A DNA stretch of 64,000 nt from Haliotis rubra. Lineage: Eukaryota. The stretch is taken from assembly GCF_003918875.1 (NCBI RefSeq), contig NW_025767188.1, forward strand, positions 62,001 through 126,000. Direction: 5' to 3'. The notes below the pieces were generated by a model. It was not told where the DNA came from. It saw only the letters and a program-made list of their open reading frames with translations, and made no database searches. Shown one piece after another: positions 13,141 through 62,294 of this stretch (the stretch's first letter is position 1; each line of letters begins with the position of its first letter). The position numbers and the translations under genes are program-made.

Positions 13141-14904
13141 ACTCACATACGGACCCGATAACATATTTGTGTGTCAGGAAAACCAAGGATAACTGTGTTT
13201 GAAAAACGTGTTTATTATGAAGAAAAAAATACAAACAATATTTACATAACATTTACAAACAAACAACAAAACAATAATGACTAACTGACTGACTCGCTCA
13301 CTCACGTGTAGTTGGATTCAATATTTTAGCCTGCCTTAACAGTACCCGGAACAAGCAATATCAAGTATCTCTGTCATGCGAAGTTACATGCAGGATGGTG
13401 GACATCCGGAGAGGCCCCGGTAGAGCTGTGGACGTCATCTTCTGTGTCAGATCAAGACGTAAATGAAGCCGTATTTCCGAGGGCAGAGCTGTTCCCTATG
13501 TGCGTCATAATTGTCCCCTCGGCAGTTTTGACTGGTTTGTTATATTGGACATTGTGGAGAGACCATACTCATCATCGACCTTTCTTCGGTACGTATTTCA
13601 CAAGACGTGACATTTCCCGCACCGACTCGAACAGCCCTTCTCCATTTGGTGCGCATGCGCCGTGTATGTGCGGTCGCGGTTTTTGAGGTCGCGGATGTCA
13701 AGTTCCTCAGCAACCTCGGGGGGCTTTAGGGCACCCATGTCCAAAACACAAATATATTTTACAAATTACTTCATTCATAATAATTTCCTTCTACAGCGTG
13801 ATAAACGATGTCCCATGATGACTCCATAGAACACATCTTTTATTTAATGTGAAGAGTGGCGGCAGGGTGGCCCAGTGGTGAGTGTGTTAGCTCTTCTCAG
13901 ATAAAACTGGTTTGATTCCCCCAAACACCTCGTGTCCATCACTGTACAGTATGCTAGCATATGGCAGGAATGTGACTTATGCCAGTACAAAAACCAACAT
14001 GTTATGTATCTACCTGTCGGTAAAACCATTGGTGAGTTCTCCCAACGCCCTGGTTTAATTTCCCCATAGCAGTGTCACTGTGCAATAGTATCAACCACTA
14101 GTTTGCCTGCTGTAGGTCTGATTCCACCTTGCCGGTCATTATGGACCAGTCTGACGCACTCACCTGGCAAATCCTGCTTGTTAGCTATCACCACTACCGG
14201 CACCCCCGCCATCTCTGGCGAACTGAAGATCCCATGGAGCTCCGACAAGGCTTCCTTCATGCGCAGCCGATCTGCGCTGTCCACCACATAGATCAGACCT
14301 GTGGAGTATTGAAGAATTGACTTCAACATGTTGGGCGCTGTTCTCACTGTGTAAATCCTCACAGCCAACCATTATAACTTCACAGACTGCTCACGTAACG
14401 TTTAACACAAACACACACCACGAAGTCTGTGACACACCCATCCTTTTGTCACCCAACCAGGATTCAGTGGTCAGTGGGAAAATGCAAAAAATATTTTTGG
14501 GGTTAGCCAATCAAAAGCCACGCTATATCTGAAAGGCAATTGCGTTATCCCATGTAATTGTAGTTGGAATATCTATTGATGCAATTTATTTCGTGTTCCT
14601 AACCTAAACCGTAGGGAAAGTTATGAAATGCTGTCTAGGGGGTTGTATAATGTGTCGTTGTAGCATGTGTTGGTCAACCACTGCACTGCCGTCAACGTCA
14701 ATCCACCCAGTGGGGGTATTACGATACGCCAGAACAGCCAGGCTACAGCTGAGGGCCCAGCTGGAGAGGGTCTCCGGCCAAGTTCACTCACAGACATTTT
14801 CTGATATCTACCCCATTTTGTCGGCCATAACAACAGACTGGGTGTACGCATTGTGCACCGTGGGTTATTTTGTGTGAAGAGTATGACTCCCATTTTAATA
14901 TATG

Positions 14905-15417
14905 ATAGTGTTGGGTACATTTGTTGACCTACCTTGGGTGTTGGGGTAGTAGCATTGTGAATATGTTGACCTACCTTGTGTGTTGAGGTAGTAGCATTGT
15001 GAATATGTTGACCTACCTTGTGTGTTGGGGTAGTAGTGTTGGGTATATGCTGACCTACCTTGTGTGTTTGGGTAGTAGTGTTGGGTATATGTTGACCTAC
15101 CTTGTGTGTTGGGGTAGTACTGTTGGGTATATGTTGACCTACCTTGTGTGTTGAGGTAGTAGTGTTGGGTATATGTTGACCTACCTTGTGTGTTGGGGTA
15201 GTACTGTTGGGTATATGCTGACCTACCTTGTGTGTTGAGGTAGTAGTGTTGGGTATATGTTGACCTACCTTGTGTGTTGAGGTAGTAGCTTTGTGAATAT
15301 GTTGACCTTGTGTGTTGAGGTAGTAGTTTTGGGTGTATGTTGACCTACCTTGTGCGTTGCGGTAGTAGTGTTGGGTACTAGTATATGTTGACCTACTTTG
15401 TGTGTTGGGGTAGTATT
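14905..15417 (-). repeat. 42-bp minisatellite (about 12 units) made of the ARF-B exon 2 end plus its 5' splice site
   Basis: Unit TACTACCCCAACACACAAG|GTAGGTCAACATATACCCAACAC; its first half is the YYPNTQ coding end of the exon. Confidence 0.9.
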
Positions 15418-15699
15418 GTCTCCACAGCTGTCGGATCTTCTGCTGACCCCCCACGTCGCACACATGAGTGAACGTCACACCTTTGAAAAATAGTTGTTGT
15501 TTTCAACCAAGACCCAAATTCTTGTAGGAATACCATCTCAGAATTGCAGGAACAGTGCCGTGTCGACGTAAAACTATATTCACTCTAACCTCGGCCAGTC
15601 CCACGGTTTACTGTTTACTCCCAAGTCCCGGGGACCATAACGAGCACTTTACTCTTAGCTCGACACAAACGGAGTACTATATATAGTATGAGATACTAT

Positions 15700-22929: not shown

Positions 22930-23835
22930 CGTGTATGGTCACCCTGTGTGTTCACAACTGCCAAGCAACGCCTCCTCGTGGACAGTCTATTGTGTGTAAA
23001 CACATTATTGGGAAGTCGGCGCCATTGTTCCTGCAAAGCAGCACCAAGATCCTGCAAATTCTGGGGTTGGTTCCTGAAAGTGCGCAGACCTGTACCAATA
23101 GCATCCCAGATGTGGTCGATTGGATTGAGATCAGGTGGCCTTGACGGCTAGTCAAGAACATTGATTCCTGCGTTCTGCAGGTTATTCCTGGCCAAGATGG
23201 CTGCATGTGGTCTGGCATTGTTATGTTGGAAGTGCAGACCTGGACCATGTGCTGCCATGAATGGAATAAATTCGGGGGTTGGCATGCCTGGTCGCGGTAA
23301 CCTGCAGCATTAAGGTTCCCACGGATAACCAGAAGTCGGGAACGGGCAATCCCACAGAAAGTACCCCAAACCATGATACTTCCGACCCCAAATTTGTCAA
23401 CTTCCTGTACACAACACTGGGCATAACGTTCACGGCGTCGCCTCAACACTCTCATCCTACCATCAGCGAATCTGAGGGTAAATGTTGATTCATCACTGAA
23501 GACAACTCGATTCCAGTTTCTGTGAGTCCATCGGAGGTGTCGTCGGGCCCACAGCAACACTGACGTCAATGTCATGGCGTAAAAATGATTCCGCGATATG
23601 GTCGTCGAACACGAAGGTGTGCAGCTCGCAGCCGGTTTCGGATGGTTTGTGCCGACAGTCGACCCCTAAACAGCTCATTTCTGGTACCTGTTTCCGTCAA
23701 AAAACGATTACGGAGGTCACGTGACACAGTTTGACGGTCCTCCGCCTGTGACGTCACACGTTGCCGGCCTGGCCTGAGGCGATCAGTGGTGCCGTTATTG
23801 CAATGAAACGTTTGACAAATTGTTTTATTGTAGTG
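22930..23835 (-). mobile_element. Tc1-like transposase pseudogene
   Basis: GRQRVTSQAEDR, LSAQTIRNRLRAAHLRVRRP, WNRVVFSDES, IMVWG, QHNNARPH and SRQGHL/DLNPIDHIWD spread over several frames. Confidence 0.85.
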
Positions 23836-29894: not shown

Positions 29895-32610
29895 ATGGCG
29901 ACCTCCCAGAAGTTGACAGAACACTTCCTGACATGCACCATATGTACAGAGGTGTTTGACAAGCCCTGTACACTTGTGTGTAATCACACCTTCTGTCGGA
30001 AATGTGTCGTCAACTACACCAAAACCAGACCAGAAGCCCTCAGTGCCAAGTCTCTCCTGTGTCCATTCTGCAGGAAGATGACGAAAGTGTCTGACCCCGA
30101 GAGACCAGTGGAGGAGTGGGCGGATGACGTCAAGCCTATCTTTGTCATCCAGGGACTGTTGGACTCGTTTGGCCCCGGATCTAAAGGTGAATAGTTGTAG
30201 GTTGTAGCAATATACGTGTTGTTTACAAGCAGGTAACAGTATAATTGATTTAAGCAAAATAAATGTTTGTGATGTTATGAACATTGTATGACCCCTGCTA
30301 TGTATATACTACTATAGTTTGATGTATGTAAAAATCTGATTGTGAGGAATGTGAACTTTCATTGTGGATATGTGTTCAACGAGCAAGACACAGCATATCA
30401 GGTGACATGACCAAAGACATATATAAACCTTATTCATGATCCGTACTACAACGTTTACGGTGAGATAATTCCAAACATATTTACATGACGTTTCAACCTG
30501 AGACATGTTGATATGTTTCCGATACATTTTCTCACATGTGTCAAGTAGGAACATGATGCGACACATCCAGCCCTATAATACATTGCGATGTTACCAGGTT
30601 AATATCACCACATCTAGCCCTGTAATACATTGTGATGTCACCATGTTAATATCACCACATCTAGCCCTGTAATACATTGTAATGTCACCAGGTTAATATC
30701 ACCACATTTAGCCCTATAATAAATTGTGATGTCACCAGGTTAATATCACCACATCTAGCCCTATAATACATTGTGATGTCACCAGGTTAATATCACCACA
30801 TCTATCCCTGTAATTCATTGTGATGTCACCATGTTAATATCACCACATCTAGCCCTATAATACATTGTGATGTCACCATGTTAATATCACCACATCTAGC
30901 CCTATAATACATTGTGATGTCACCAGGTTAATGTCACCACACGAATGAATGGTTATTTCAGATACAACTAACTGCAGTTATTGTAAGGAGGAAGGGGAGA
31001 CAACTCCAGCTACATCTTGGTGTTCTGTTTGTGACGACGCACTATGTGAACAATGTACAAGGATGCACCAACGAACCCCCTCTTTCCGTCACCATGACGT
31101 AGTTGACCTGTCTGGTGAGACAAAGGTCAAGGTCAAGAGAAAGGTCATGTGTAAAGTTCACAAGAATAAAAGGATCAAATATCTTTGTAAAGATTGTAAA
31201 ACAGCTGTTTGTCAAACATGCTGCACGATCCATCACAGGAAATGTGATATGGTTGTTGAAATTGAGTCAGAGATTCCTGCAATGAAAACCGAGCTGAAAA
31301 GGAATAAAGAGAATTTGTTAAAGAAAGACAATGAGATGAAAAGATATGTTGGAAAACAAAACTCCCTTGTCAAAGAAGAATTGGCGCTATATATACAAAT
31401 AGAATCAAATATCAAGTCTGCAAGTCTCACTGCAATACAGATGATCAAAGCCAAGGAACGGAAACTTCTGTCTGAACTGAAAGAGATGTCTGACAGACAC
31501 ATTGGACAACTGAAGGCAGACGTAAAGTCAGGTGAGATGTCAGTACAGATGTACCAACAACAGGCTGAGCTGATAGACCAGGCTCTACAATCTGAGTGTG
31601 ACATGGATGTGTATGAGATGTATCAGGGATGTGAGGCCGGTGATGTGGAGGCTGTCGGAGTCGAAGACATGAAGGAGAAGGGAAGAATAGACAGGATAAC
31701 ATTCAGACAGGACACGGACAAGCTGAGTAGAGCACTGGAAGATCTCCATCTGGGTGAGATACACGTCCAGTATGACGATGTGCTGGACCTGAAGGCTACC
31801 CCTGTGTTACAGGACACCATTAACGTGACAGTAGCAGGAGATGCAGGTGGGGGAGACCCCACTGATGTGACGGTGTTAGAGGTGAATGGTACAGACACAG
31901 TGGTAGTTACAGACTACAAGAACAACAGTGTAAAGTCCTTCTACACCAGGAACAGTCAGCCAGGTCACAGCAGGCTCAGTGTGGGAGGTGCACCACGGGG
32001 TATAACAAGGCTGAAACACAACCAGGCAGCTGTCACTGTGCCGGATACCAGTCAGATTGTAACAGTTGAAGTGAACCCTGACCTGGTGCTGCTGTCGACC
32101 ATCACAACCAGCAAACAGTACCGGGGTATAACGTCTCTGACACCATCAACACTAGCAGCAAGTTCCCACTTCCCTCCCTGTGTTGATATCCTGGATATGT
32201 CGGGACACGTGCTGAAGTCAGTTTATCCTCGCCCCAATGGCGGAGACATCTTACAGTATCCCGACTCCCTCTGTACCACGAGGACAGGAAACATCCTGGT
32301 GTCTGACTTGGGAACCAGGTGTGTCGTGTGTCTGACCCCCGAGGGAGATGTGGTGTTCAACTACAGACCTACAGGAGACACAACATGGAAGTATTCACTT
32401 GGTATCACAAGTACCAGCACAGGCGACATCCTGGTGACAGACGAACCACAACACAGAGTCATCCATCTGACAGAGTCAGGACAGTTTGTTAGAAACATAC
32501 TGACATCACAGGGTGGTGTCAAGAAACCAAGGGGACTGTGTTTTGGTGGGCGTGGTCGTATGTACTTGTGTACACCAGATGTAGTGAAGGTATTTACATG
32601 CTGTAAGTGA
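29895..32610 (+). CDS. TRIM E3 ubiquitin ligase (RING-B1-B2-coiled coil-NHL/beta-propeller; TRIM56/TRIM2/3-like), copy 1, 646 aa; exons 29895-30186 and 30962-32610
   Basis: C3HC4 RING CTIC...CNHTFCRKC...CPFC; B-box 1 CSYC...CSVC...CEQC..H; B-box 2 CKVH...CKDC...CQTC..HH; coiled coil; NHL-like repeats (PRGI, GNILVSD, GDILVTD). Phase-1 GT-AG intron; 1941 nt. Confidence 0.92.
30563..30940. repeat. 47-bp intronic minisatellite, about 8 copies, just upstream of the TRIM exon-2 acceptor (paralogue 44365-44746)
   Basis: Unit ACATCTAGCCCTATAATACATTGTGATGTCACCAGGTTAATATCACC. Confidence 0.9.
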
Positions 32611-43695: not shown

Positions 43696-46464
43696 ATGGC
43701 GACCTCCCAGAAGTTGACAGAACACTTCCTGACATGCTCCATATGTACAGAGGTGTTTGACAAGCCCTGTACACTTGTGTGTAATCACACCTTCTGTCGG
43801 AAATGTGTCGTCAACTACACCAAAACCAGACGGGAAGCCATCAGTGCCAAGTCTCTCCTGTGTCCATTCTGCAGGAAGATGACGAAAGTGTCTGACCCCG
43901 AGAAACCAGTGGAGGAGTGGGCGGATGACGTCCAGCCTATCTTTGTCATCCAGGGACTGTTGGACTCGTTTGGCCCCGGATCTAAAGGTGAATAGATGTA
44001 GGTTGTAGCAATATACGTGTTGTTTACAAGCAGGTAACAGAATAATTGATTTAAGCAATATAAATGTTTGTGATGTTATGAACATTGTATGACCCCTGCT
44101 ATGTATATACTAGTATAGTTTGGTGTATGTAAAAAAACTGTTTGTGAGGAATGTGAACGTTCATTGTGGATATCTGTTCAACGAGCAAGACACAGCATAT
44201 CAGGTGACATGACCAAAGACATATATAAACCTTATTCATGATCCGTACAACAACGTTTACGGTGAGACAATTTCAAACATATTTACATGACGTTTCAACC
44301 TGAGACGTGTTCCGATGTTTCCGATACATTTTCTCACATGTGTCAAGTAGGAACATGATGCGACACATCCAGCCCTATAATACATTGTGATGTCACCAGG
44401 TTAATATCACCACATCTAGCCCTATAATACATTGTGATGTCACAATGCTAATATCACCACATCTAGCCCTATTATACATTGTGATGTCACGAAGTTGATA
44501 TCATCATATCTAGCCCTATAATACATTGTGATGTCACCAGGTTGATATCATCATATCTTGCCTTATAATACATTGTGATGTCACCAGGTTAATATCACCA
44601 CATCTAGCCCTATAATACATTGTGATGTCACCAGGTTAATATCCCCACATCTAGCCCTATTATTAACACATTGTGATGTCACCAGGTTAATATCACCATA
44701 TCTAGCCCTATAATACATTGTGATGTCACCAGGTTAATATCACCACACGAATGAATGTTTATTTCAAATACAACTAACTGCAGTTATTGCAAGGTGGGAG
44801 GGGAGACAACTCCAGCTACATCTTGGTGTTCTGTTTGTGACGACGTACTATGTGAACAATGTACAAGGATGCACCAACGATTCCCCTCTTTCCGTCACCA
44901 TGACGTAGTTGACCTGTCTGGAGAGACAAAGGTCAAGGTCAAGAGAAAGATCATGTGTAAAGTTCACAAGGACGAGAATATCAAATATCTTTGCAAAGAT
45001 TGTAAAACAGCTGTTTGTCAAACATGTTGCACCATACATCACAGGAAATGTGACATGGTTGTTGAAATTGAGTCAGAGATTCCTGCAATGAAAACCGAGC
45101 TGAAAAGGAATAAAGAGAATTTGTTAAAGAAACACGATGAGATGAAAACATATGTTGGAAAACAAAACTCCATTGTCAAAGAAGAATTGGCGCTATATAT
45201 ACAAATAGAATCAAGTATCAAGTCTGCAAGTCTCACAGCAATACAGATGATCAAAGACAAGGAACGGAACCTTGTGTCTGAACTGAAAGAGATGTCTGAC
45301 AGACACATTGGACAACTGAAAGCAGACATAAAGTCGGGTGAGATGTCAGTACAGATGTACCAACAACAGGCTGAGCTGATGGACCAGGCTCTACAATCTG
45401 AGTGTGACATGGATGTGTATGAGATGTATCAGGGATGTGAGGCCGGTGATGTGAAGGCTGTCGGAGTCGTAAACGTGAAGGAGAAGGGAAGAATAGACAG
45501 AATAAAATTCAGACAGGACACGGACAAGCTGAGTAGATCACTGGAAGATCTCCATCTGGGTGAGATACACGTCCAGTATGACGATGTGCTGGACCTGAAG
45601 GCTGCTCCTGTGTTACAGGACACCATTGATGTGCTGGACCTGATGGCTACCCCTGTGTTACATGACACCATTAATGTGACAGTAGCAGGAGATGCAGGTG
45701 GAGGAGACCCCACTGACGTGACGGTGTTAGAGGTGAATGGTACAGACACAGTGGTAGTTACAGACTACAACAACAACAGTGTCAAGTCCTTCTACACCAG
45801 GAACAGTCAGCCAGGTCACAGCAAGCTCAGTCTGGGAGGTGGACCCTATGGTATAGCAAGGCTGAAACACAACCAGGTGGCTGTCACTCTGCTGTATACC
45901 AGACATATTGTAACAGTTGAAGTGAACCCTGACCTGGTGCTGCTGTCCACCATCACAACCAACAAACATTACCGGGGTATATCGTCTCTGACACCATCAA
46001 CACTAGCAGCATGTTCCCACTACCCTCCCTGTGTTGATATCCTGGATATGTCGGGACACGTGCTGAAGTCATTTTGTCGAGGCCACAGAGGTAGAAACAT
46101 CTTAATGTATCCCGACTCCCTCTGTACCACGAGGACAGGAAACATCCTGGTGTCTGACCGTGGAACCAAATGTGTCGTGTGTCTGACGCCCGAGGGAGAT
46201 GTGGTGTTCAACTACAGACCTACAGGAGACACAGTACTGAAGGATCCATTTGGTATCACAAGTACCAGCACAAGCGACATCCTGGTGACAGACACCTCAC
46301 AACACAGAGTCATCCATCTGACAGAGTCAGGACAATTTGTTAGAAACATACTGACATCACAGGACGGTGTGTGGTATCCAAGGGGACTGTGTGTTGGTGG
46401 GCGTGGTCGAATGTACTTGGTGTGTGCATTAGATGTAGTGAAGGTGTTTACACACTGTGAGTGA
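43696..46464 (+). CDS. TRIM-NHL copy 2; exons 43696-43987 and 44768-46464; canonical exon-2 acceptor mutated, possibly an incipient pseudogene
   Basis: Same domain architecture with both exons open. Acceptor reads TTTCAA rather than the TTTCAG of copy 1. 45-bp in-frame internal duplication at 45583-45672. Confidence 0.8.
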
Positions 46465-50280: not shown

Positions 50281-52697
50281 AATTAGGGCTCCTTGCCTCC
50301 AGGCAGGAGACCTATTGAAATCGTTCGGATTATTATTATTCATTATTCCGCTGTATTTTGTACCAAACATAGCTCCTAAACCAGAACTCAGAATCTCTTC
50401 CAAAAAATCACCAAGGTGCCCACAACATTGAAGTTGATAGCGCCAAAAAACGCAGGACTCTAGGCCCAATAGCACAGGGCAGATAATTCAAAAATAATTC
50501 AAAAATTTTAATTTCCAAAGCAATAATCTCCGAAACTACATGTCCAATGACTACCAAATTTCAGGGGCAACTCTGGAATCCGATTACCTTCAATTTCAAC
50601 TGCATGACCCAAGGGGCCAAGAGGCTCAGTTTGGCGGCTATATTGGATTCAAGGAAATATGAAGGTTTTGGCGGGTAGGCAATTCCACTGTTCCGTACAT
50701 TATATGTGTACATATGATAACTGAAGTCCTGACACGACTAGTGGTAGTGTAGCCTTACGGCTAGTGGTAGTGTAGCCTCACGACTAGTGGTGGTGTAGCC
50801 TCACGACTAGTTGTAGTGTAGCCTTACGGCTAGTGGTAGTGTAGCCTTACGGCTAGTGGTAGTGTAGCCTCACGACTAGTGGGAGTGTAGCCTCACGACT
50901 AGTGGTAGTGTAGTCTTACGGCTAGTGGTAGTGTAGCCTCACGACTAGTTGTAGTGTAGCCTTACGGCTAGTGGTAGTGTAGCCTTACGGCTAGTGGTAG
51001 TGTAGCCTCACGACTAGTGGTAGTGTAGCCTCACAACTAGTGGTAGTGTAGTCTTACGACTAGTGGTAGTGTAGCCTCACGACTAGTGGTGGTGTAGTCC
51101 TACGACTAGTGGTAGTGTAGCCTTACGGCTAGTGGTCGTGGTAGTGTAGCCTCACGACTAGTGATAGTGTAGCCTCACGACTAGTGGCAGTGTGAATGCG
51201 TACAGTCAATACCAGAGTTAAATGGTATATGTCAAATCTGAGCACTTCGCGCCGTTACCGTATTTGCTCAAGGCAGGAATGTTGATAACGGAAATTTACT
51301 TTCACTAGTCATAAATCGTTACCGTAGTTTATGCATTAAGCGCAACATACCGTAATAATAATAAATTCCTAACCGTAGTTAACGCAATAGGCACTACATA
51401 CCGTAATTGTCATAAATGGGCCCCGTAGTTAACTCCTTAGGCGTGACATAACGTAATAGTCATAAATCTGCACAACAGTTAATGAACTAGGCACTACATG
51501 CTGTAATTAAACAGTTGGGTGCTCCACTCAGTACTTGTTCTTTGCAATTGTTGTCGATGATTAATTTATCCGTCAGGTTATGTTATTTATCAGTACCGTA
51601 GTTACGCAAGGAAATGATGTATTATTTGTATTATGTTTCTGTAAGCAGTTACCGTACATACCCTGTTGTACCACACATAGCTTGTATTACCCGACTTAGA
51701 TATAAACTGTATTAGGATATCATTGATTATTATTTCTATTATTGTATGTCATTATTACGACTAGTGGTAGTGTAGCCTTACGACTAGTGGTAGTGTAGCC
51801 TCACGACTAGTGGTAGTGCAGCCTTACGGCTAGTGGTAGTGTAGTCTCACCATACATATGTATTTACTACATGTGTGCTTAATTATCGAGGAATTGTATC
51901 TACTTGTTGGAAACTTGTAATTATCAGTAAATATTGCAACAGTTTAATTCATGCGTATTTCTGCATTGTGCTGTTTACGCTTTGATGAGAAATGTAGACA
52001 CGTCTTTTTGTGATCCACGAGAGAGTTAGTGAGTTGAATTTTACGCCGCACCCAGCAATATTCCAGCTATTTGGCGGCATTCTGCAAAATAATCGGATCT
52101 GGACCAGACAATCAGGGGATCAACAGCATTAACATGAATCTACGCAATTGGGAAACGACGACATGTGTCAACCCAGTCAGCGAGCCTGACCACCCGATCC
52201 CGTTAGTCGCCTGTTACGAAAAGCATAGGTTACTGAAGATCAATTCTAACCGTGATCTTCACGGTGTTATCCATGAACTGCCATGAATCACGGAAGGAGT
52301 TCACAGAGGACATACAATGAAAGTAAAACGCCAAGAAGACATAATGACCACAATCTATTGGCCGTGAGGAAAAACAGACTATACGCACAAAGATGTATGT
52401 TTTTTGGTTTTGATGCCTTTGTGTGACATTAACAATAAATAAATTAACAGTGACATGGAAGACACGCCATGGTGGGTTTGAGAGGACCGTGCAGATGTAG
52501 GGCAGGTAGACTAGAGATGTAGAGCAGGTAGACTACAGATGTAGAGCGGGTACCCTACAGATGTAGAGCAGGTAGACTACAGATGTAGAGCAGGTAGCCT
52601 ACAGATGTAGAGCAGGTAGACTACAGATGTAGAGCAGGTAGACTAGAGATGTAGAGCAGGTAGACTATAGATGTAGAGGAGGTAGACTACAGATGTA

Positions 52698-52760
52698 GCG
52701 CCTAGAGAAAGTGCCTTGCAGTTTGATTTGTGCGCTATACAAGAACACTTATTATTATTA
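52698..52760 (+). mobile_element. Short 3' tail of an L2/CR1-type element inserted in the 22-bp satellite
   Basis: GCGCCTAGAG...GCGCTATACAAGAACAC(TTA)n interrupts the array. Confidence 0.5.
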
Positions 52761-54538
52761 TGTAGAGCAGGTACACTACAGATGTAGAGCAGGTAGACTA
52801 CAGATGTAGAGCAGGTAGACTACAGATGTAGAGCAGGTAGACTATAGATGTAGAGCAGGTAGACTACAGATGTAGAGGAGGTAGACTACAGATGTAGAGC
52901 AGGTAGACTACAGATGTAGAGCAGGTAGACTACAGATGTAGAGCAGGTAGACTACAGATGTAGAGCAGGTAGACTACAGATGTGGAGCAGGTAGACTACA
53001 GATGTGGAGCAGGTAGACTACAGATGTAGGAGCAGGTAGACTACAGATGTGGAGCAGGTAGACTACATGTGGAGCAGGTAGGAGCAGGTAGACTACAGAT
53101 GTAGAGCAGGTAGACTACAGATGTGAAGAGCAGGTAGACTACAGATGTAGAGGAGGTAGACTACAGATGTAGAGCAGGTAGACTACAGATGTAGAGGAGA
53201 GGTAGACTACAGATGTAGAGCAGGTAGACTACAGATGTGGAGCAGGTAGACTACAGATGCAGGAACAGGTAGCAGAGGTAGATGAAGAGCAGGTAGACTA
53301 CAGATGTGGAGCAGGTAGACTACAGATGTGGAGCTGGTAGACTACAGATGTAGAGCAGGTAGTCTACAGATGAAGAGCAGGTAGACTACAGATGTAGAGC
53401 AGGTAGACTACAGATGTAGAGCAGGTAGACTACAGATGTAGAGGAGGTAGACTACAGATGTAGAGCAGGTAGACTACAGATTTTTCTGGGATATCTCCAC
53501 ATGGGAGAGTTGTGTGTACGATCAAATGACATACGTCTGAGCTGCTCTCTGTTCAACGCGATCAACACCTGTTACTGAATTGACTTGACATTATTGTGTG
53601 GTGGAAGGGAGATCACTCATGATGAGGTATATTAAAAGAGAAATAACACCGAATGTTACACACCACCAAATGTTTTCCCATAGACTTTTTTTTGTAACCT
53701 TATATTTTTTTTCAAAATATCCAGGCTATCGACAGCCATTGCATGTACTCGTGGGTACACTCTGGCCTTTAAACTACCATAAAACAAAATATCAGGCCAA
53801 CTTGTCCGGCTTGTTTTGCGAGCCAAGGAAGCGGAACACATCAACCCCAGTTCCGCACCAAATGTCACCTACTGGAAAATATCTGTACACACAATAAGCA
53901 TAAGTGATGGTGATAAAAATGACAGTACTCAATACTTAAAATTGTGGTCAGTTTTAATTACTGATTGGATGTGCGTTTAAAAAACAAACTTCTTACACTT
54001 TTTCATCCAATCACAGCTGTCACATGTCTCACATGTCGCTTCACTTGTTTACACACGGCTCTCGCGCAGGGAGCATGTGATACTGATTTAGTGTAGTGGA
54101 ACCTAAATAGTGTATTGCCATTTGAGCTGTTCCCGAACTTCCCGTGTGTTGTAAACAGACATACGAGGGGCACATTGAAGAGCGATGTTCTAGTAGCAGT
54201 ACGAGTACTGAGTCCAAAGGGGTACTGTCAATAGCTCTTCAATGTGCTTCGCAGGGTGGCCCTAGAGGACCAAACACTTTATGAATACTCTGTACTCAAG
54301 CTTATCCATATCTGCAGTTTCAATAGGGATACATGTGATTAAATGTCACGTGACATGTTGTGCATGTCACCATTACGTTTATGTGAATGATTTAAACCTT
54401 TCTTCAATATCATACAGTTATTTTTATCATGCACATAACATAAGCAATTCAGGCTCAAAACGTTTTGATAGCCCCTCGTATACAGTGTACACGGCCGCTT
54501 GATGGTCAACGCAGCACTCAGTTTTCCAGCCACGTGTT

Positions 54539-55915
54539 TGTGGCAGAGACCTTTTTGTATATCTGAGTATTATGAACCCTTTGCGCCAGTTAGCTTTTAA
54601 GTATTGTAAATAATCGTTAATTCTCTAGCTTTTTTTTATCATCCAACAGGCGCTGACATATCCAATTTAAACATATAATTTAATATATTGCTTTGTTTCC
54701 GCTCACTATAGTAGCTGAAATGAAATAGTTCATAATTCATGTACTTTTGTTAGGTTTCTTGATTTCAGCTCATATCAGCGCTGAAACAATTCATATACTT
54801 AATCGCTTAGTTTTAATAATACAATCAATAGTGTCTACTCAACCATGACCATACGTTACGATTGGTCCATTCAAACCTGCATGCTTTTTCTATGTCTGAA
54901 CACCTCGCACCCTCACACGTCATATCGTCACCAGACACGACTGACAACACTTGTGTGACACATGTAACTATCTTCAATGTGTAATCTTAAACACATCATA
55001 TATTAAATAAGGGTAATTAATGCCGTAGTTAGCGTGTGTTGTAAACGGCACGCGGGTAAACGCAAAGTTTTTGTTTTAATGTGTATCATATCTTCCCCTT
55101 TAAACGTAAATAACATTCAATAACTATAAAGCGAGGCATTGTGAGAATGTTTTGTGTAGGAATGTTGTCTCATTGTTGTTATCGCAGTTTGCACAAGGTG
55201 AGGTGAGGTGAGTTTTACGTTGTGCTTGAGCATATTTCGCTCATATGACGACGTGCATGTATGTGTGGCTGCTTGTACTAGCCCAGATTTAAGCCGGTTT
55301 TATAGTGCTAGCCCACTGAGATACCATGCCGCAGTGAAGCATGAATACCCGACTCAGACACATTATACTGACTCCGAGCCGACCAGTCCTTGTACCCATT
55401 AATGCCGAGCGCCAGGCAGGGACCAACAAGTACCATATTTTAAGGTCTTTTGGCATGACGCGGTCGGGGATCGAACCCGCGACCTTCCGCTCTCGGGGCG
55501 GACGCTCTAACCACTTTACCACGGAGGCGGTCTCTAAACACAATGTAGTGATGGGTGCTACAGCACTCGTACATCGGGTAGCTTTGGATTGGCCATCCGA
55601 TGCTGCTCGTATGTTTCCGAGTGTGATCGGGGCACGTGATCAACTTACCCGCAGAGTCTGACAGATGACAATTAGGAGATCAAGAGGAGACACTGACGAC
55701 TACGGACACGAATACTTCGCAGAACCCTATAAAGTTGATCTCCCAACTCATCATCGCTTACGAAGCAAGGTAAGCGCCTTTCCCTATCACCTGGCTTTCA
55801 CAACAACAAATAATGGCAAAGTATCTCAATCGAAGGTTTTATAGAGTATCAAATATATCTTTCCATGCTTAACATTATGTCTATATGGACAGTTTACACT
55901 GAATCGGTTTGGTTT
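54539..55915 (+). mobile_element. Left part of the solo-LTR-like element, with nested SINE C
   Basis: Starts TGTGGC after TSD TGTT; about 55173-55915 is nearly identical to about 39913-40728. Confidence 0.65.
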
Positions 55916-56169
55916 TGATCACAACCTATGTTATTTCCAGTACTCCATCGTCTGCTATGGCAGCCCAGACACAAACACGGCCCCTGTGCCATACATAGAG
56001 TATGTAATGTGCCGGACAATACTGTTTATAACATGTATATATATCATTCTAACATAAAGAATCATCGTTCTGTTATAGTGCAAATATTTCATAAATATTT
56101 CACACACAAAAATATAATAACTATGATATGAAATTTATATGAATTCACAAAGGTACCTATGTTGTGATT

Positions 56170-58154
56170 TTTATTAGGCTTCATTGGCCAACTTTCAAAA
56201 TCTTTGTTTGGCACAGACTGCAACATCTAAGGATGTCAACATCTTAGCCAAACACATCAATGCACTAACCAAGCACGAATCACTGTTAGGCAATGTATTA
56301 ACAGAGCATGAACACAAATTGACCTCGATAATGGCAAATGAAGATACTCGATTTTCAAATGCTCTTAAAGGCATAAAAATCAATCATGAGGCAATAAAAT
56401 ATGCTACAGCAAGCATTAAAGCTTCATACACCAATCTTCAAAATGCATAATATATGTATCCTTATCATCAGTCTTGCTTCACCAAATTGAGCAAGCTGCA
56501 CTTATTGAGCATAAATGGCAGGAGTTTAAACTAGGAACCTTAGATCTGCGAAAAGGCAAACTTTCACCACTGTTAATTTCCCCTGCAATCATTAGCAAAA
56601 CTATCAATCACATTCAACATCTTCTTAAAAGTAAATATAAGTGATTCAAATTGTTACAAACTGATCTACAGTTTTATTACAATAATTCTAATTTCTTGTA
56701 TGCCAGGACAAAATCAAACAAACTATACGTTACTGTCAAATTTCCATTGGCACCATCTGATGTTTCCTTTAAACTGTACAAACTCATTTCAATGTCAGTT
56801 CCTGTAAATGAGTCTACTAGCCATTCTACACAACTACTTAATCTGCAACCTTTTCTTGCAACTGCTCTTAACCAGCAATATTTCACAACTCTTAATTTGG
56901 ATCAGGTTTCTCAATGTTATGGCACTTCTACCTTACACTGTCCCTTTAGACTAACCCTAGCCACCAGAACACAAACGTCCTGTGAAATGGCATTATACCG
57001 TAATAGCAAAGCGGAAGTCAAAGCACAGTGTAATTTTAGGTTCCTTCAGCAGGAACAAAAGTCACAACTAATTGAAATAACCCCCTCCAAATTACTTGTC
57101 TATAACTCTCCATTACTAACCCTCACTTGCCCTGATGGTCAACGAATCATCACAGGTTGTTCCTTTTGCATGGTCGCACTGCCATGCTTATGTTCTGTCT
57201 CAACAGAGAATCTCGTCTTTCCTGCTCATCCAGGAACTTGTCAAAACCTTACTCACGAGGATATCAGCTACCTACATCTACTACAGCACTTTTTCGAGGA
57301 ATCAACTTTAGATACTATTTCTGGTATACCTTATATAATGAACCAGTTCAAGTCACGATTCCTGATTTTCATCTTTACACGAATCAGTTTTCGAAAGTTA
57401 TTGCTAATGATCATAAGGATCACCTTAGTCTTAAGCGTATGGCTAAGAGTGTTAAAAAGAATGAGGTTATCTTTCAAAGTTTGACTGACTCTCTCTTGGG
57501 TGGTAAAATTAATGTAAAATCGTCCTGGTTAGACCTAAGTTCTATTATCCCTATAGTTGCTGCAGTACTATCAGTCCTAGCCATAGCTGCAATTATTTGG
57601 ATGTTCTTCAAGATCAGAGGTTTAACTGTCACTATCACCATTCTTCAAGCTACTGTATCAGTTAACTCTACCCCCATCCCCTCATTCGAATATCATAACC
57701 CAACCCCACAACCACCCAGCAATATGTACCCAATACTTAATACCATGTATGACCACATTCAGATGATATTTGTTTTCATATCATTTGTACTAATTTTGAT
57801 TATTTTATATAAATTATTTACCAAGAAATCACACCACACCCTCATTTTGTTGGAACTTACTTCCGGCTCATTATGTGAAGTAGTGCCAATAATGCCCTTT
57901 CATTGTGTCCGTCATACTTGGACATTTGCCCACCTTCCGTTATCAAAAACCTGTATCCATCAAGTTACCTTAGACCTACTCTCAATGTAACTTGGCCGAA
58001 TTTTCGAATTGCAAACAAGCTTACCCAGCAATCATTAAAAATTCCCCTTTCAGTAAAAATCTCACCTTTTATGGCAAGACGTATAAACGTCATACTCTCT
58101 CAGCCTTTTGCCGAAAACATCCTCATCTCTCACCATGGTCTATATGAAGTCTAG
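56170..58154 (+). pseudogene. env: Envelope fusion glycoprotein, baculovirus F / errantivirus env-like (F1 part), with stops and frameshifts
   Basis: Fusion-peptide-like LLGFIGQLSKSLFGT-ATSKDV, heptad region, Cys cluster (QCYG..HCP..SCE..QCNF..CPDG..GCSFCMVALPCLCSV), TM helix IIPIVAAVLSVLAIAAIIWMFF, then PPT and LTR. Confidence 0.75.
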
Positions 58155-58684
58155 ATTATCATTACAACATATTTCTTACCATGCATTGTGTTACACCTTG
58201 TATCATTATGTACGAACCTTATCAATTTGGTTCCATATAGAAGTGTATTATGTTATGTACATAATTTTTGTAAACAATATTCTCATAGATGATTATTTTT
58301 GCTTTTGAGGACAAAAGCTTCTCGCGACAGAGGGGTATTGTTATAGTGCAAATATTTCACTCATATTTCACACACAAAAATATAATAACTATGATATGAC
58401 ATTTATATGAATTCCCAAAAGTAACTATGTTGTGATTTTCCGTACACAAACGAGAGTAACTCACTCAGGTTGTAAAATACATGCCGCCAGACATGGACAT
58501 ACTGTAGACAATAGATAACGGTTTGCACGGCAGTTACCGGCTGCACGTCACTTCCTGATTGACACGCTGACCACGTAATGATAATCCCACAGGCAAGTCG
58601 GCGGTCAATCTGAAATGCTTCTGGCTAAATGAAACGGTAGCCTTGTGTTTTTATTACCACCGTCCGGTCATAGACCGATGTACG

Positions 58685-60970
58685 ACAGACAGACAGACAA
58701 AATAGTTTATTTATGTGTCACGTGAATGTACGTGTCAAAAAATGGCAACGTTAAAGAGACATAGAAAAATACAGACACCAGGCCAGATGGCCAATGAGAC
58801 ACACTAGACAATATGTGCATGAAATGTATAAAATATAAGATTAAAACATTAAAGAGTATCACGCATATGAAAGACCTAAGGAAAAAGAAAGAAATTTATA
58901 GGGATGATAGCTTATGCCGATACATACGGCTAACTAAAGCGGCCAGTGAAATAACAATACTTTCTGTTTGTAAGAGGAGTGTAGCTTGTTCAGTGTTTGA
59001 TAACTGAGCAAAAGTTGGGTATAAGATACTAGTTTTTCTAAACAAATCATATCTAAGATCAGAATAATAAGGACAGCTAACTAAGAAATGGACTTCGTCT
59101 TCGACAGCCTGACTACTACAGTGACGACAAAGCCTGTCTGCAAGTGGCGTCGCAGGACGAGAAAATCTACCACGTTCTATTTCTACTGGAAGTGTTCCAC
59201 AGCGAAGTTTACCTAGAACGCTACGGTGCCATCTGGGCAGTATAGCAGTTATGTATGGTTCTGGAGTAACAGTGTACTTAAACTGTCTATATGTGCGTAG
59301 CTTATTACCGTTGGGATTACCCTGGTCATTCCACAATTCCCGTAGCCACTCCTGATGATCTAACAACTGTATATGTTGAAATGACAAAGTCAATTCACTA
59401 CTAGACATGTGTAGCAAGTCTTGCACTGGGAGTTGCAACGATTGTAATAAAGATGACACTGTGTTATCCCATGATTTGGCTAAACGCCGTGACCAGCTGC
59501 TAATAACAGAAGGCAATCTATCAGGTCCCATACGATGCAACTTAACCCAAACCTCGTCAGGAGCGATAAGTGCTACATATGTCGTCTGCATATAATAACA
59601 AACTGAGCCTAACATCATCAATTTCAATGCCACATCCTAAACTGTTTATCTCGTGAGCAAGGTCGTTCACATATATTGAAAACCGTCGGTGACAACCCAC
59701 ACCCCTGACGAACGCCGGAGGTTACAGAGAAAATGTCTGTGTATTCATCGTTAATACGGACCCGGGCCGAGGTACTGTCATACATGGACTGAACTGCGTG
59801 TAAGAACTTCCCGTTAATGCCAAGCTGCAGTAGTTTATACCAAAGACAGTGTCTGTTTACCTTATCAAAAGCCTTCATAGCATCAATATAGCAAACAAAG
59901 GTAGACTTGTTAGCTTGTCTTCTATTTTTTATAACTGAATAAATGCTATACAAGTGCTCTAAGGTTCCACGTTTAGAGCGAAACCCATTTTGTTCATCCA
60001 CTAAAATCTTATTCGCTTCCAGCCAAGAACTAAGTCTAGAATTAAGTATATTCGCATAAATTTTACACGGGACTGATAACAAAGCTAGATGCCTCTATAT
60101 CCCAACGGGTCACGGGGGTCAGAACCGGTTTCCTAATAGGATTAATAATGCTATGACACCATGCTAGGGGGCAGATATTATTATCAAAACAGTAACTGTA
60201 AATACGAAAAAGGATATCAACGCAAGCCTTGTTCTTCAACGCCTCAGCCGGTATACAGTCGGGCCCCGCCGCCTTCTTGGGTTGTACAAGTTTTGTTAAG
60301 GTAATTGTTACGTTGTTTGAATGCAAGGAACAAAAACTTCGCTAAACGATTTAAAATACCTGAATCGTGAGATGTGCAAAGTAATACCAGTTTATCACTG
60401 GTCACATGACCGTTGTCAATTTCATTGTTTACATGACAAAAATGGGTATCACTGAAACTGGGTGATTCTTGTTTGGAAAATAAAGAGCTATAGTCATTCC
60501 GCCATTTATCAAGGACAACTGCTCCATCAGAAGATACAGAATCGTTATCAGGAATAACCTCCCAAGGAGCAGTATCTTTACGTTCTTCTGAAATACCCAA
60601 CATGCCTATGGTCTTCCAAAAACTACGAGGATTATTATCAGAGTGTTTATCTTATAGTCGTTGCTGCTCCTTCAACTGATACTCCCGTTTAGTCTTGCGT
60701 AGCTGCCTGCTTGTCGAAAGCTTTTCTATGACTGGTATAGATGTGGCGAAGTTTCCTTCGCAATACAAAAGATTTACAACGTAACCACTCACGCTCGGCA
60801 GCTTTAGCGTCATCACACAGTGACCGTAGATTCTCACTCCAATAAGGTTTATCAACTGATTTACACTTATTCAATCTAACCTTCGACCTACTAGCTGTAC
60901 AAGAGGGAACCCCATCTAATTCCGCATACATAAAGTTTAAAACATCATTAAATATCTCGTCAACATCGTC
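58685..60970 (-). mobile_element. CR1/L2-group LINE (RT fragments plus C-terminal Cys/His domain), decayed, inserted in the 3' LTR
   Basis: KAAGPDCIPAEAL, DEQNGFR, DAMKAFDKV, GVRQGCGLSP, KLRTYRQFK...LCRHC..VEDEVHFLVSC; AATAAA plus (TGTC)n tail; RT YADD region deleted. Confidence 0.88.
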
Positions 60971-62294
60971 CTATACGTTAGGCAATTTATGAGACTATTG
61001 TATCAACCAGGAACAACCCATGAAATAACAAAGGGATAATGGCGACAATAATTTACAATTGCTTTGCGTTCCTCCGATATATAAGCAGGTGCAGTTTGAC
61101 TGTCAAGTCACTCTGCATCTGAACAAACCTTGGAACGCTAGCAACTCTGATGTCATCATTATCCTGAATTCATATATTTTATTTTAAGGTAAGACATTTC
61201 CATGCGTTTCTATGTTCGTTTTATTATATGTTGAAAGTGTTTTAGGATTACTGTTTTAGATTTCGGTAACTTCAAATCATTTATATTATTGTAGATGTTC
61301 AGCTACAGGCGTGCGTTCATTTGTGTAGTTATTGTCCAATATATTGCGAAATTGTTATAATGTTTAGGAAGGGTTGAACCCCGGAAACAGGTGTACACTT
61401 ACACCTATGTAAAACTATTATGTATATTCAGGCTAATAAGAGCAGCGCTTGTATTAAAGGGAGTACGGTAGTGAGTAAATTGCACTACCGTAAAACATCT
61501 ACGAAACATCTACGATACGTGTACTAGTTAATGTTTCATTATTTTAAGCTGATGTTACCAACAGGAATCTAATGTGTTAGCTAGTGTATTTGTATCGTTG
61601 TGTGCCGTTCTCTGAACTTAAAAATATGTTCCTGTAAGGTTCTACCTGTACATAAAAATATAATGCCCAACATACGCTGATGTTTCGATAAGTATAGTGT
61701 TTATATATATGAGTACAATATGTTCGTATCAGTTATCTGTAATACTGTACCTTATCATTATTTGATGTGTTCATATATATGTATACATATGATGGAATTG
61801 AAATATTTTATAAATGTAATGTTCAAAACATGTTGATGTTCTGCGAAGCTTAATAATTATGAAGATGAATATAATATGTTCACGTCAGTCTAATGTAATA
61901 CTGTATGATTACTTTGATATGTTCATATATTGAATTGAATTGAAATGTCTTATTGAATTCACTCTGCATTTGAATAAACCTTGGAACGCTAGCAACTCTG
62001 ATGTCATCATTATCCTGAATTCATATATTTTATTTTAAAGCAAAAATTACCGTGAGACAGCGCGTTCTCAGTTCCTTTATGTTAACCTTCTAAGGTAAAT
62101 ACTGTATGCTATGCGGCGATTACCGTTTAACTTTGTTTAACTCATGTCATGAGTTATCGCCCCTGATCTTTGTAAATTTCAACCCCTCAGTGATCATGAT
62201 ATTTCTGTAATGTTTTAATGCACAGACAATATTGCCGGCGCTCATGCATTCAATCTGTATTAACATATATACTGTTAATGTACTGAATATAACA

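Follow-up and report, generated by a model that had tools for sequence, protein, structure and literature searches.

The window analysed here (64,000 nucleotides of Haliotis rubra contig NW_025767188.1, positions 62,001 to 126,000 of the forward strand; C2298 in our contig numbering) carries a copy of an abalone Ty3/gypsy long terminal repeat (LTR) retrotransposon. We are fairly confident that this copy is internally deleted and frame-broken, that its envelope gene (env) is of the F type, and that in the family to which it belongs env likely encodes a class I fusogen followed, after a predicted signal-peptidase cut, by a membrane-anchored domain predicted to have a matrix-like fold. The locus itself is dead and ordinary: it contributes no more than a Haliotis member, with a history that is clean and can be dated, to a class already known. 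The three-pass Env tail with its predicted matrix-like domain is a family-level lead that we did not find in print.

The window copy and a longer relative

The element is assigned to positions 56071–62070 because the tetranucleotide GTTC flanks both ends and empty paralogous sites carry it once (the second site of locus L066, and L071–L073; L074 has a one-letter variant). The LTR length of about 1,450 bp was obtained by aligning the two LTRs of a copy on another contig, C1458, and mapping the result onto the window. Paired LTRs (TG...CA), a target-site duplication (TSD; GTTC in the window, ATAG in C1458) and a polypurine tract together identify an LTR retrotransposon. An earlier, sequence-only reading had placed the element at 56071–58440; the 5' start stands but the 3' end does not, as a long interspersed nuclear element (LINE) fragment splits the 3' LTR. 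Of the two copies in which this site is visible, only the window copy contains the LINE, and the LTR of the duplicate L063 is contiguous there. The other structural calls of that reading hold: an LTR stub joined to env through a T-run (direct repeat 56071–56171/58339–58439, TG start, 93% identity with 7 mismatches in 101 bp), fusion-peptide-like codons immediately after it, a purine tract in front of the 3' LTR at 58339, and the absence of gag, pol and the pre-cleavage subunit.

Features of the window element. Coordinates are those of the window.
Feature	Coordinates	Strand	Evidence or remark
Left target-site copy GTTC	56067..56070	.	second copy at 62071-62074
5' LTR stub, first 101 of ~1,450 bp	56071..56171	+	LTR alignment
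Fusion-peptide codons LLGFIGQLSKSLFGT	56171..56215	+	directly after T-run; preceded by stop, no ATG; follow RSKRA in C1458
env remnant (F1 ectodomain, anchor, tail), frame-broken	56172..58154	+	97.4% identity to C1458 over 56172-58338
Env membrane anchor, transmembrane segment 1 (TM1)	57541..57597	+	hydropathy 2.79; helix in structure model
Signal-peptide-like segment	57619..57669	+	after basic stop-transfer residues; predicted internal signal and cleavage site
Second membrane helix	57763..57819	+	hydropathy; 23/25 homologues; 109/113 in larger set
Conserved ~110-aa beta domain, predicted matrix-like	57826..58151	+	broken near 57895 here
Polypurine tract	58327..58338	+	sequence; identical tract precedes C1458 3' LTR
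3' LTR, part one	58339..58684	+	mapping of C1458 LTR
LINE fragment within 3' LTR	58685..60971	-	RVT_1 E 1.4e-18 at 59627-60094; not in duplicate L063
3' LTR, part two, end TTCTCA	60972..62070	+	94% identity to C1458 LTR
Right target-site copy GTTC	62071..62074	.	flank comparison

The window copy also lacks the signal peptide, the F2 subunit and the furin site. Its env reading frame is broken near 56213, 56447, 57326 and 57895 and carries an in-frame stop near 56642; a TGA lies two codons ahead of LLGF, no in-frame ATG is present, and the heptad-like, Cys-rich and transmembrane (TM) regions are spread over successive frames. Neither Env synthesis nor priming is possible from this copy. Contigs from two presumed RNA runs barely overlap env and are uninformative on expression either way.

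The 1.38-Gb genome was searched with env (36 matches) and with the LTR start (50 matches; 40 of 93 candidates scored). These searches recovered what the sequence-only reading had predicted, a gypsy-type gag–pol–env element with the same LTR. The C1458 copy, whose env is 95% identical to that of the window in the genome search and is flanked by two LTRs, spans 10,977 bp; its LTRs (TGTTAT...TTCTCA) are 99.2% identical. Over the common stretch the two copies share 97.4% identity (2099/2154), and 7,240 bp of C1458 are missing from the window copy. A gag-like open reading frame (ORF; Ty3_capsid E 7e-4, below the cut-off) is followed by a protease (PR) motif, reverse transcriptase (RT; top PDB match Ty3, E 1e-87), RNase H, integrase (IN), an SH3 domain, a chromodomain just above threshold (PF00385, 26.1 bits against a cut-off of 25.1) and env. 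This gag then PR–RT–RNase H–IN order with a Ty3-like RT is deleted from the window copy. As in errantiviruses, env lies between pol and the 3' LTR and has a signal peptide, ectodomain and TM segment; it starts with a signal-like segment and a short F2, and then RSKR precedes ALLGFIG. As assembled, C1458 contains frame changes in pol and env, one of the latter before the TM segment. A stretch starting with TGG, a candidate primer site, lies 5 nt past its 5' LTR. Among named proteins, the nearest belong to Haliotis (87% and 71%), followed by those of bivalves (35–40%), in line with the mollusc-lineage host that had been proposed from the sequence.

Other family copies (L053 on C1435, L054–L055 on C835, L056, L057 and L067) carry different deletions and insertions, among them an LTR-element-like insert inside env of the C835 copy, and L035, likely a solo LTR, is full-length and flanked by a separate TSD, TTAT. 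At least 82 env-like matches in the genome, at 25–100% identity (73 of 496 candidates scored), show that it houses many more F-env families. Inside the LTR, an 88-bp repeat (61105–61192/61956–62043) marks units between which several LTR copies appear to be deleted.

An F-type fusogen with a predicted matrix-like tail

Homology and fold support the assignment of Env as an F-type class I fusogen, with fusion function predicted. The Baculo_F model (PF12259) matched 24 of the 43 family members, L069 above the cut-off, and gave no direct match for C1458 Env; none of the five single-frame env pieces of the window had a Pfam match to it. The F-type call of the sequence-only reading is thereby upheld at family level. 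The modelled ectodomain matches the folds of RSV F and paramyxovirus F, and a furin site followed by a fusion peptide occurs in 37/51 homologues. The two outcomes that could have overturned that earlier reading, an Env lacking F homology or fold and an LTR lacking a gag–pol partner, were not what we observed. Searching the PDB with the C1458 ectodomain as a single sequence gave nothing under E 0.2; the A2 profile search returned the "fusion protein" entries 9w4d (E 1e-14) and 9w4c (E 4e-13). The likeness to baculovirus F and Drosophila gypsy Env comprises the family-level PF12259 match, the fold and RxxR followed by G..K.LFG, but it is remote, the abalone Env itself scoring no Baculo_F match.

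In BFVD, the best match of the ectodomain was an uncharacterized 801-aa protein of abalone herpesvirus, A0A145VUZ2 (E 2.6e-28, TMq 0.55). This protein ranks ahead of baculovirus F, and the herpesvirus and the element share a host genus. Class I fusogens have been reported in aquatic herpesviruses (Viro3D, PMC12583693), with abalone not mentioned in the part of that source covered.

The heptad, Cys-rich and TM series recognized in the sequence-only reading is present, but in place of the single TM there is a pair of TM helices, and an additional domain follows. Of 28 aligned sequences, 27 satisfy a hand-made rule for the internal signal-like segment, against a mean of 3.05 and a maximum of 11 for shuffles; a tail profile matches two window frames (E 1.7e-30 and 9.8e-7), and the beta domain is present in 93/96 full-length relatives. 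We know of no such three-pass tail with a beta domain in baculovirus F or gypsy Env. The tail topology was derived from hydropathy, which alone places the domain putatively on the cytoplasmic side. Its fold is tentatively predicted to resemble the matrix beta-sandwich: the best solved-structure matches are the matrix proteins of Borna virus (M, 3f1j), Newcastle disease virus (NDV; M, 4g1g) and Ebola virus (VP40), all from Mononegavirales, with alignments spanning 86–98 residues at modest Z scores (3.5–5.8). No matrix protein appeared in the profile search, and an atlas search with homologue tails gave weak leads only.

The same element history could hold if the tail were an endodomain or luminal domain of an unrelated beta-sandwich type, its matrix likeness being a coincidence of a common fold; we regard this as a serious alternative, of somewhat less than even probability. 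Against it, three separate matrix families (Borna, paramyxo and filo) match the same residues over most of the domain and above other beta folds, and both the size (about 110–140 aa) and the predicted membrane-adjacent position fit a matrix protein. On the matrix-like interpretation, the family may encode a fusogen-plus-matrix polyprotein. In active relatives, Gag-Pol would copy the RNA and the chromodomain integrase would insert it. Furin cleavage of Env at RxKR would expose the fusion peptide, and signal peptidase would free a second membrane protein from Env; this tail protein, with three membrane passes, would face the cytoplasm and connect the capsid with the membrane during budding.

We see about an even chance for a broader proposal, in which env of a large invertebrate errantivirus lineage combines a fusogen and a matrix protein in one cassette. 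The released, anchored protein would be homologous to Borna, paramyxovirus and filovirus matrix and would link capsid to membrane; the emergence of retrotransposon envelopes would then be tied to negative-strand RNA viruses as well as to related glycoproteins of chu-related viruses and abalone herpesvirus. Among predicted models, long glycoproteins of chu-related and Alius-type RNA viruses are matched by both the ectodomain and the tail models, whereas A0A145VUZ2, matched by the ectodomain, is not among the 50 matches listed for the tail. How Ty3/gypsy capsids acquire an envelope, and where F-type env came from, are open questions on which the tail bears; to our knowledge, Ty3/gypsy Gag has no retroviral-type matrix domain. 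If the proposal is true, an anchored matrix-like domain within env would be a direct, testable answer to the first question and would help explain how errantivirus elements get their membrane. Together with the F ectodomain, it would make two structural characters that connect these elements with negative-strand RNA viruses. The literature searched, to which most subscription journals do not belong, yielded no description of a retrotransposon Env with a matrix-like domain, nor of the abalone herpesvirus link.

Relation to described errantiviruses

The sequence-only reading had considered such elements little described in molluscs, a view superseded by the errantivirus catalogue of Chary and Hayashi (PMC13524379): in the part covered, ENV_F occurs in 35/35 mollusc rows and a chromodomain in 8/15, and a chromodomain errantivirus clade from Cnidaria, Mollusca and Annelida is described. 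The abalone family shares with these ancient F-type chromodomain errantiviruses the gag–pol–env order, the Ty3-like RT, the chromodomain after integrase and an F-type Env with furin site and fusion peptide, and several mollusc elements there have LTRs of 1.0–1.6 kb, comparable to those found here. In the part covered, that study counts as intact those elements whose gag, pol and env are uninterrupted; the window copy, with its deletion and broken frames, and C1458, with its frame changes, both fall outside this class. The intact list as covered has no Haliotis element, with two of three Haliotis assemblies given as "No intact copies". The same source argues, in the part covered, against a baculovirus origin of errantivirus env. 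Its main text treats ectodomains only, with no occurrence of "matrix", "tail", "endodomain" or "cytoplasmic"; this count concerns the main text and leaves aside the figures and sequence files.

One deletion probably multiplied by host duplication

The stub–env junction and its 5' flank are common to the window copy and L063–L066, five units all on C2298, and L075 and L076 have the LTR end and 3' flank of the window copy. The shared site, TSD and junction show a single insertion and one deletion multiplied by array duplication; each duplicate carries further private deletions. The collapsed stub–env–LTR element of the sequence-only reading is thus one old deletion copied by the host rather than a mobile env-only element. 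The complete element would have integrated first; a DNA-level deletion would then have removed most of the 5' LTR, gag, pol, the signal peptide, F2 and the furin site, and the unit would have been multiplied by host tandem duplication before decaying.

A mobile non-autonomous form, or a retrotransposed spliced env RNA, might also be suggested by a junction that recurs in five places, 4 nt after the furin-site codons. We consider this extremely unlikely: the five occurrences share one 5' flank and site on one contig, L075 and L076 share the 3' flank, and this form has lost the end of the 5' LTR together with the primer site. The join falls at LTR nucleotide 101, with neither GT..AG at the deleted ends nor microhomology found, and none of the 41 matches to a genome query with the junction (40 out of 171 candidates were scored) placed it elsewhere. 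Inspection of the junction and primer region gave no support for splicing, microhomology or self-priming; near the C1458 primer region, no match of at least 9 nt that would allow self-priming was found. We have no explanation for where the deletion ends relative to the furin codons and take this to be chance.

Under the deletion-and-duplication history, changes after duplication (285 codons, three duplicates) comprise 8 synonymous and 21 non-synonymous substitutions against a neutral expectation of 1:3.45, while the branch to C1458 has 7 synonymous and 3 non-synonymous. These small counts fit probable selection while the element was active and near-neutral drift afterwards. The family inserted at no fewer than two times, because stub and 3' LTR differ at 7/101 sites in the window whereas the C1458 LTRs differ by less than 1%. 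The host might have recruited the remnant to serve as an F1-only fusogen or as a decoy against viruses, perhaps by way of the TTTTTATTAG|G junction; this would accord with its retention in five duplicates, with the resemblance of that junction to a splice acceptor and with the immune-type B-box/NHL genes of the surrounding array. The frame breaks and stops, the extra deletions in each duplicate, the near-neutral substitution and the lack of an ATG or signal peptide make such recruitment very improbable.

The insertion site lies within another repeat (55806–56076), of which about 270 bp have matches at numerous loci, often with a spacing of about 8.5 kb. The window contains two single-ORF B-box/coiled-coil/NHL (TRIM-like) genes on the forward strand (30949–32610 and 44755–46464); the B-box/NHL unit is repeated many times on C2298, with the element carried along, and minisatellite arrays of 23-bp and 22-bp units (50641–53554) belong to the duplicated unit. 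On the reverse strand, a short Arf-family GTPase exon-like match (14621–15502, E 4.5e-7) is followed by a tandem repeat, and an ORF at 22952–23665, with no Pfam match at E 0.001, resembles by eye a Tc1/mariner transposase fragment.
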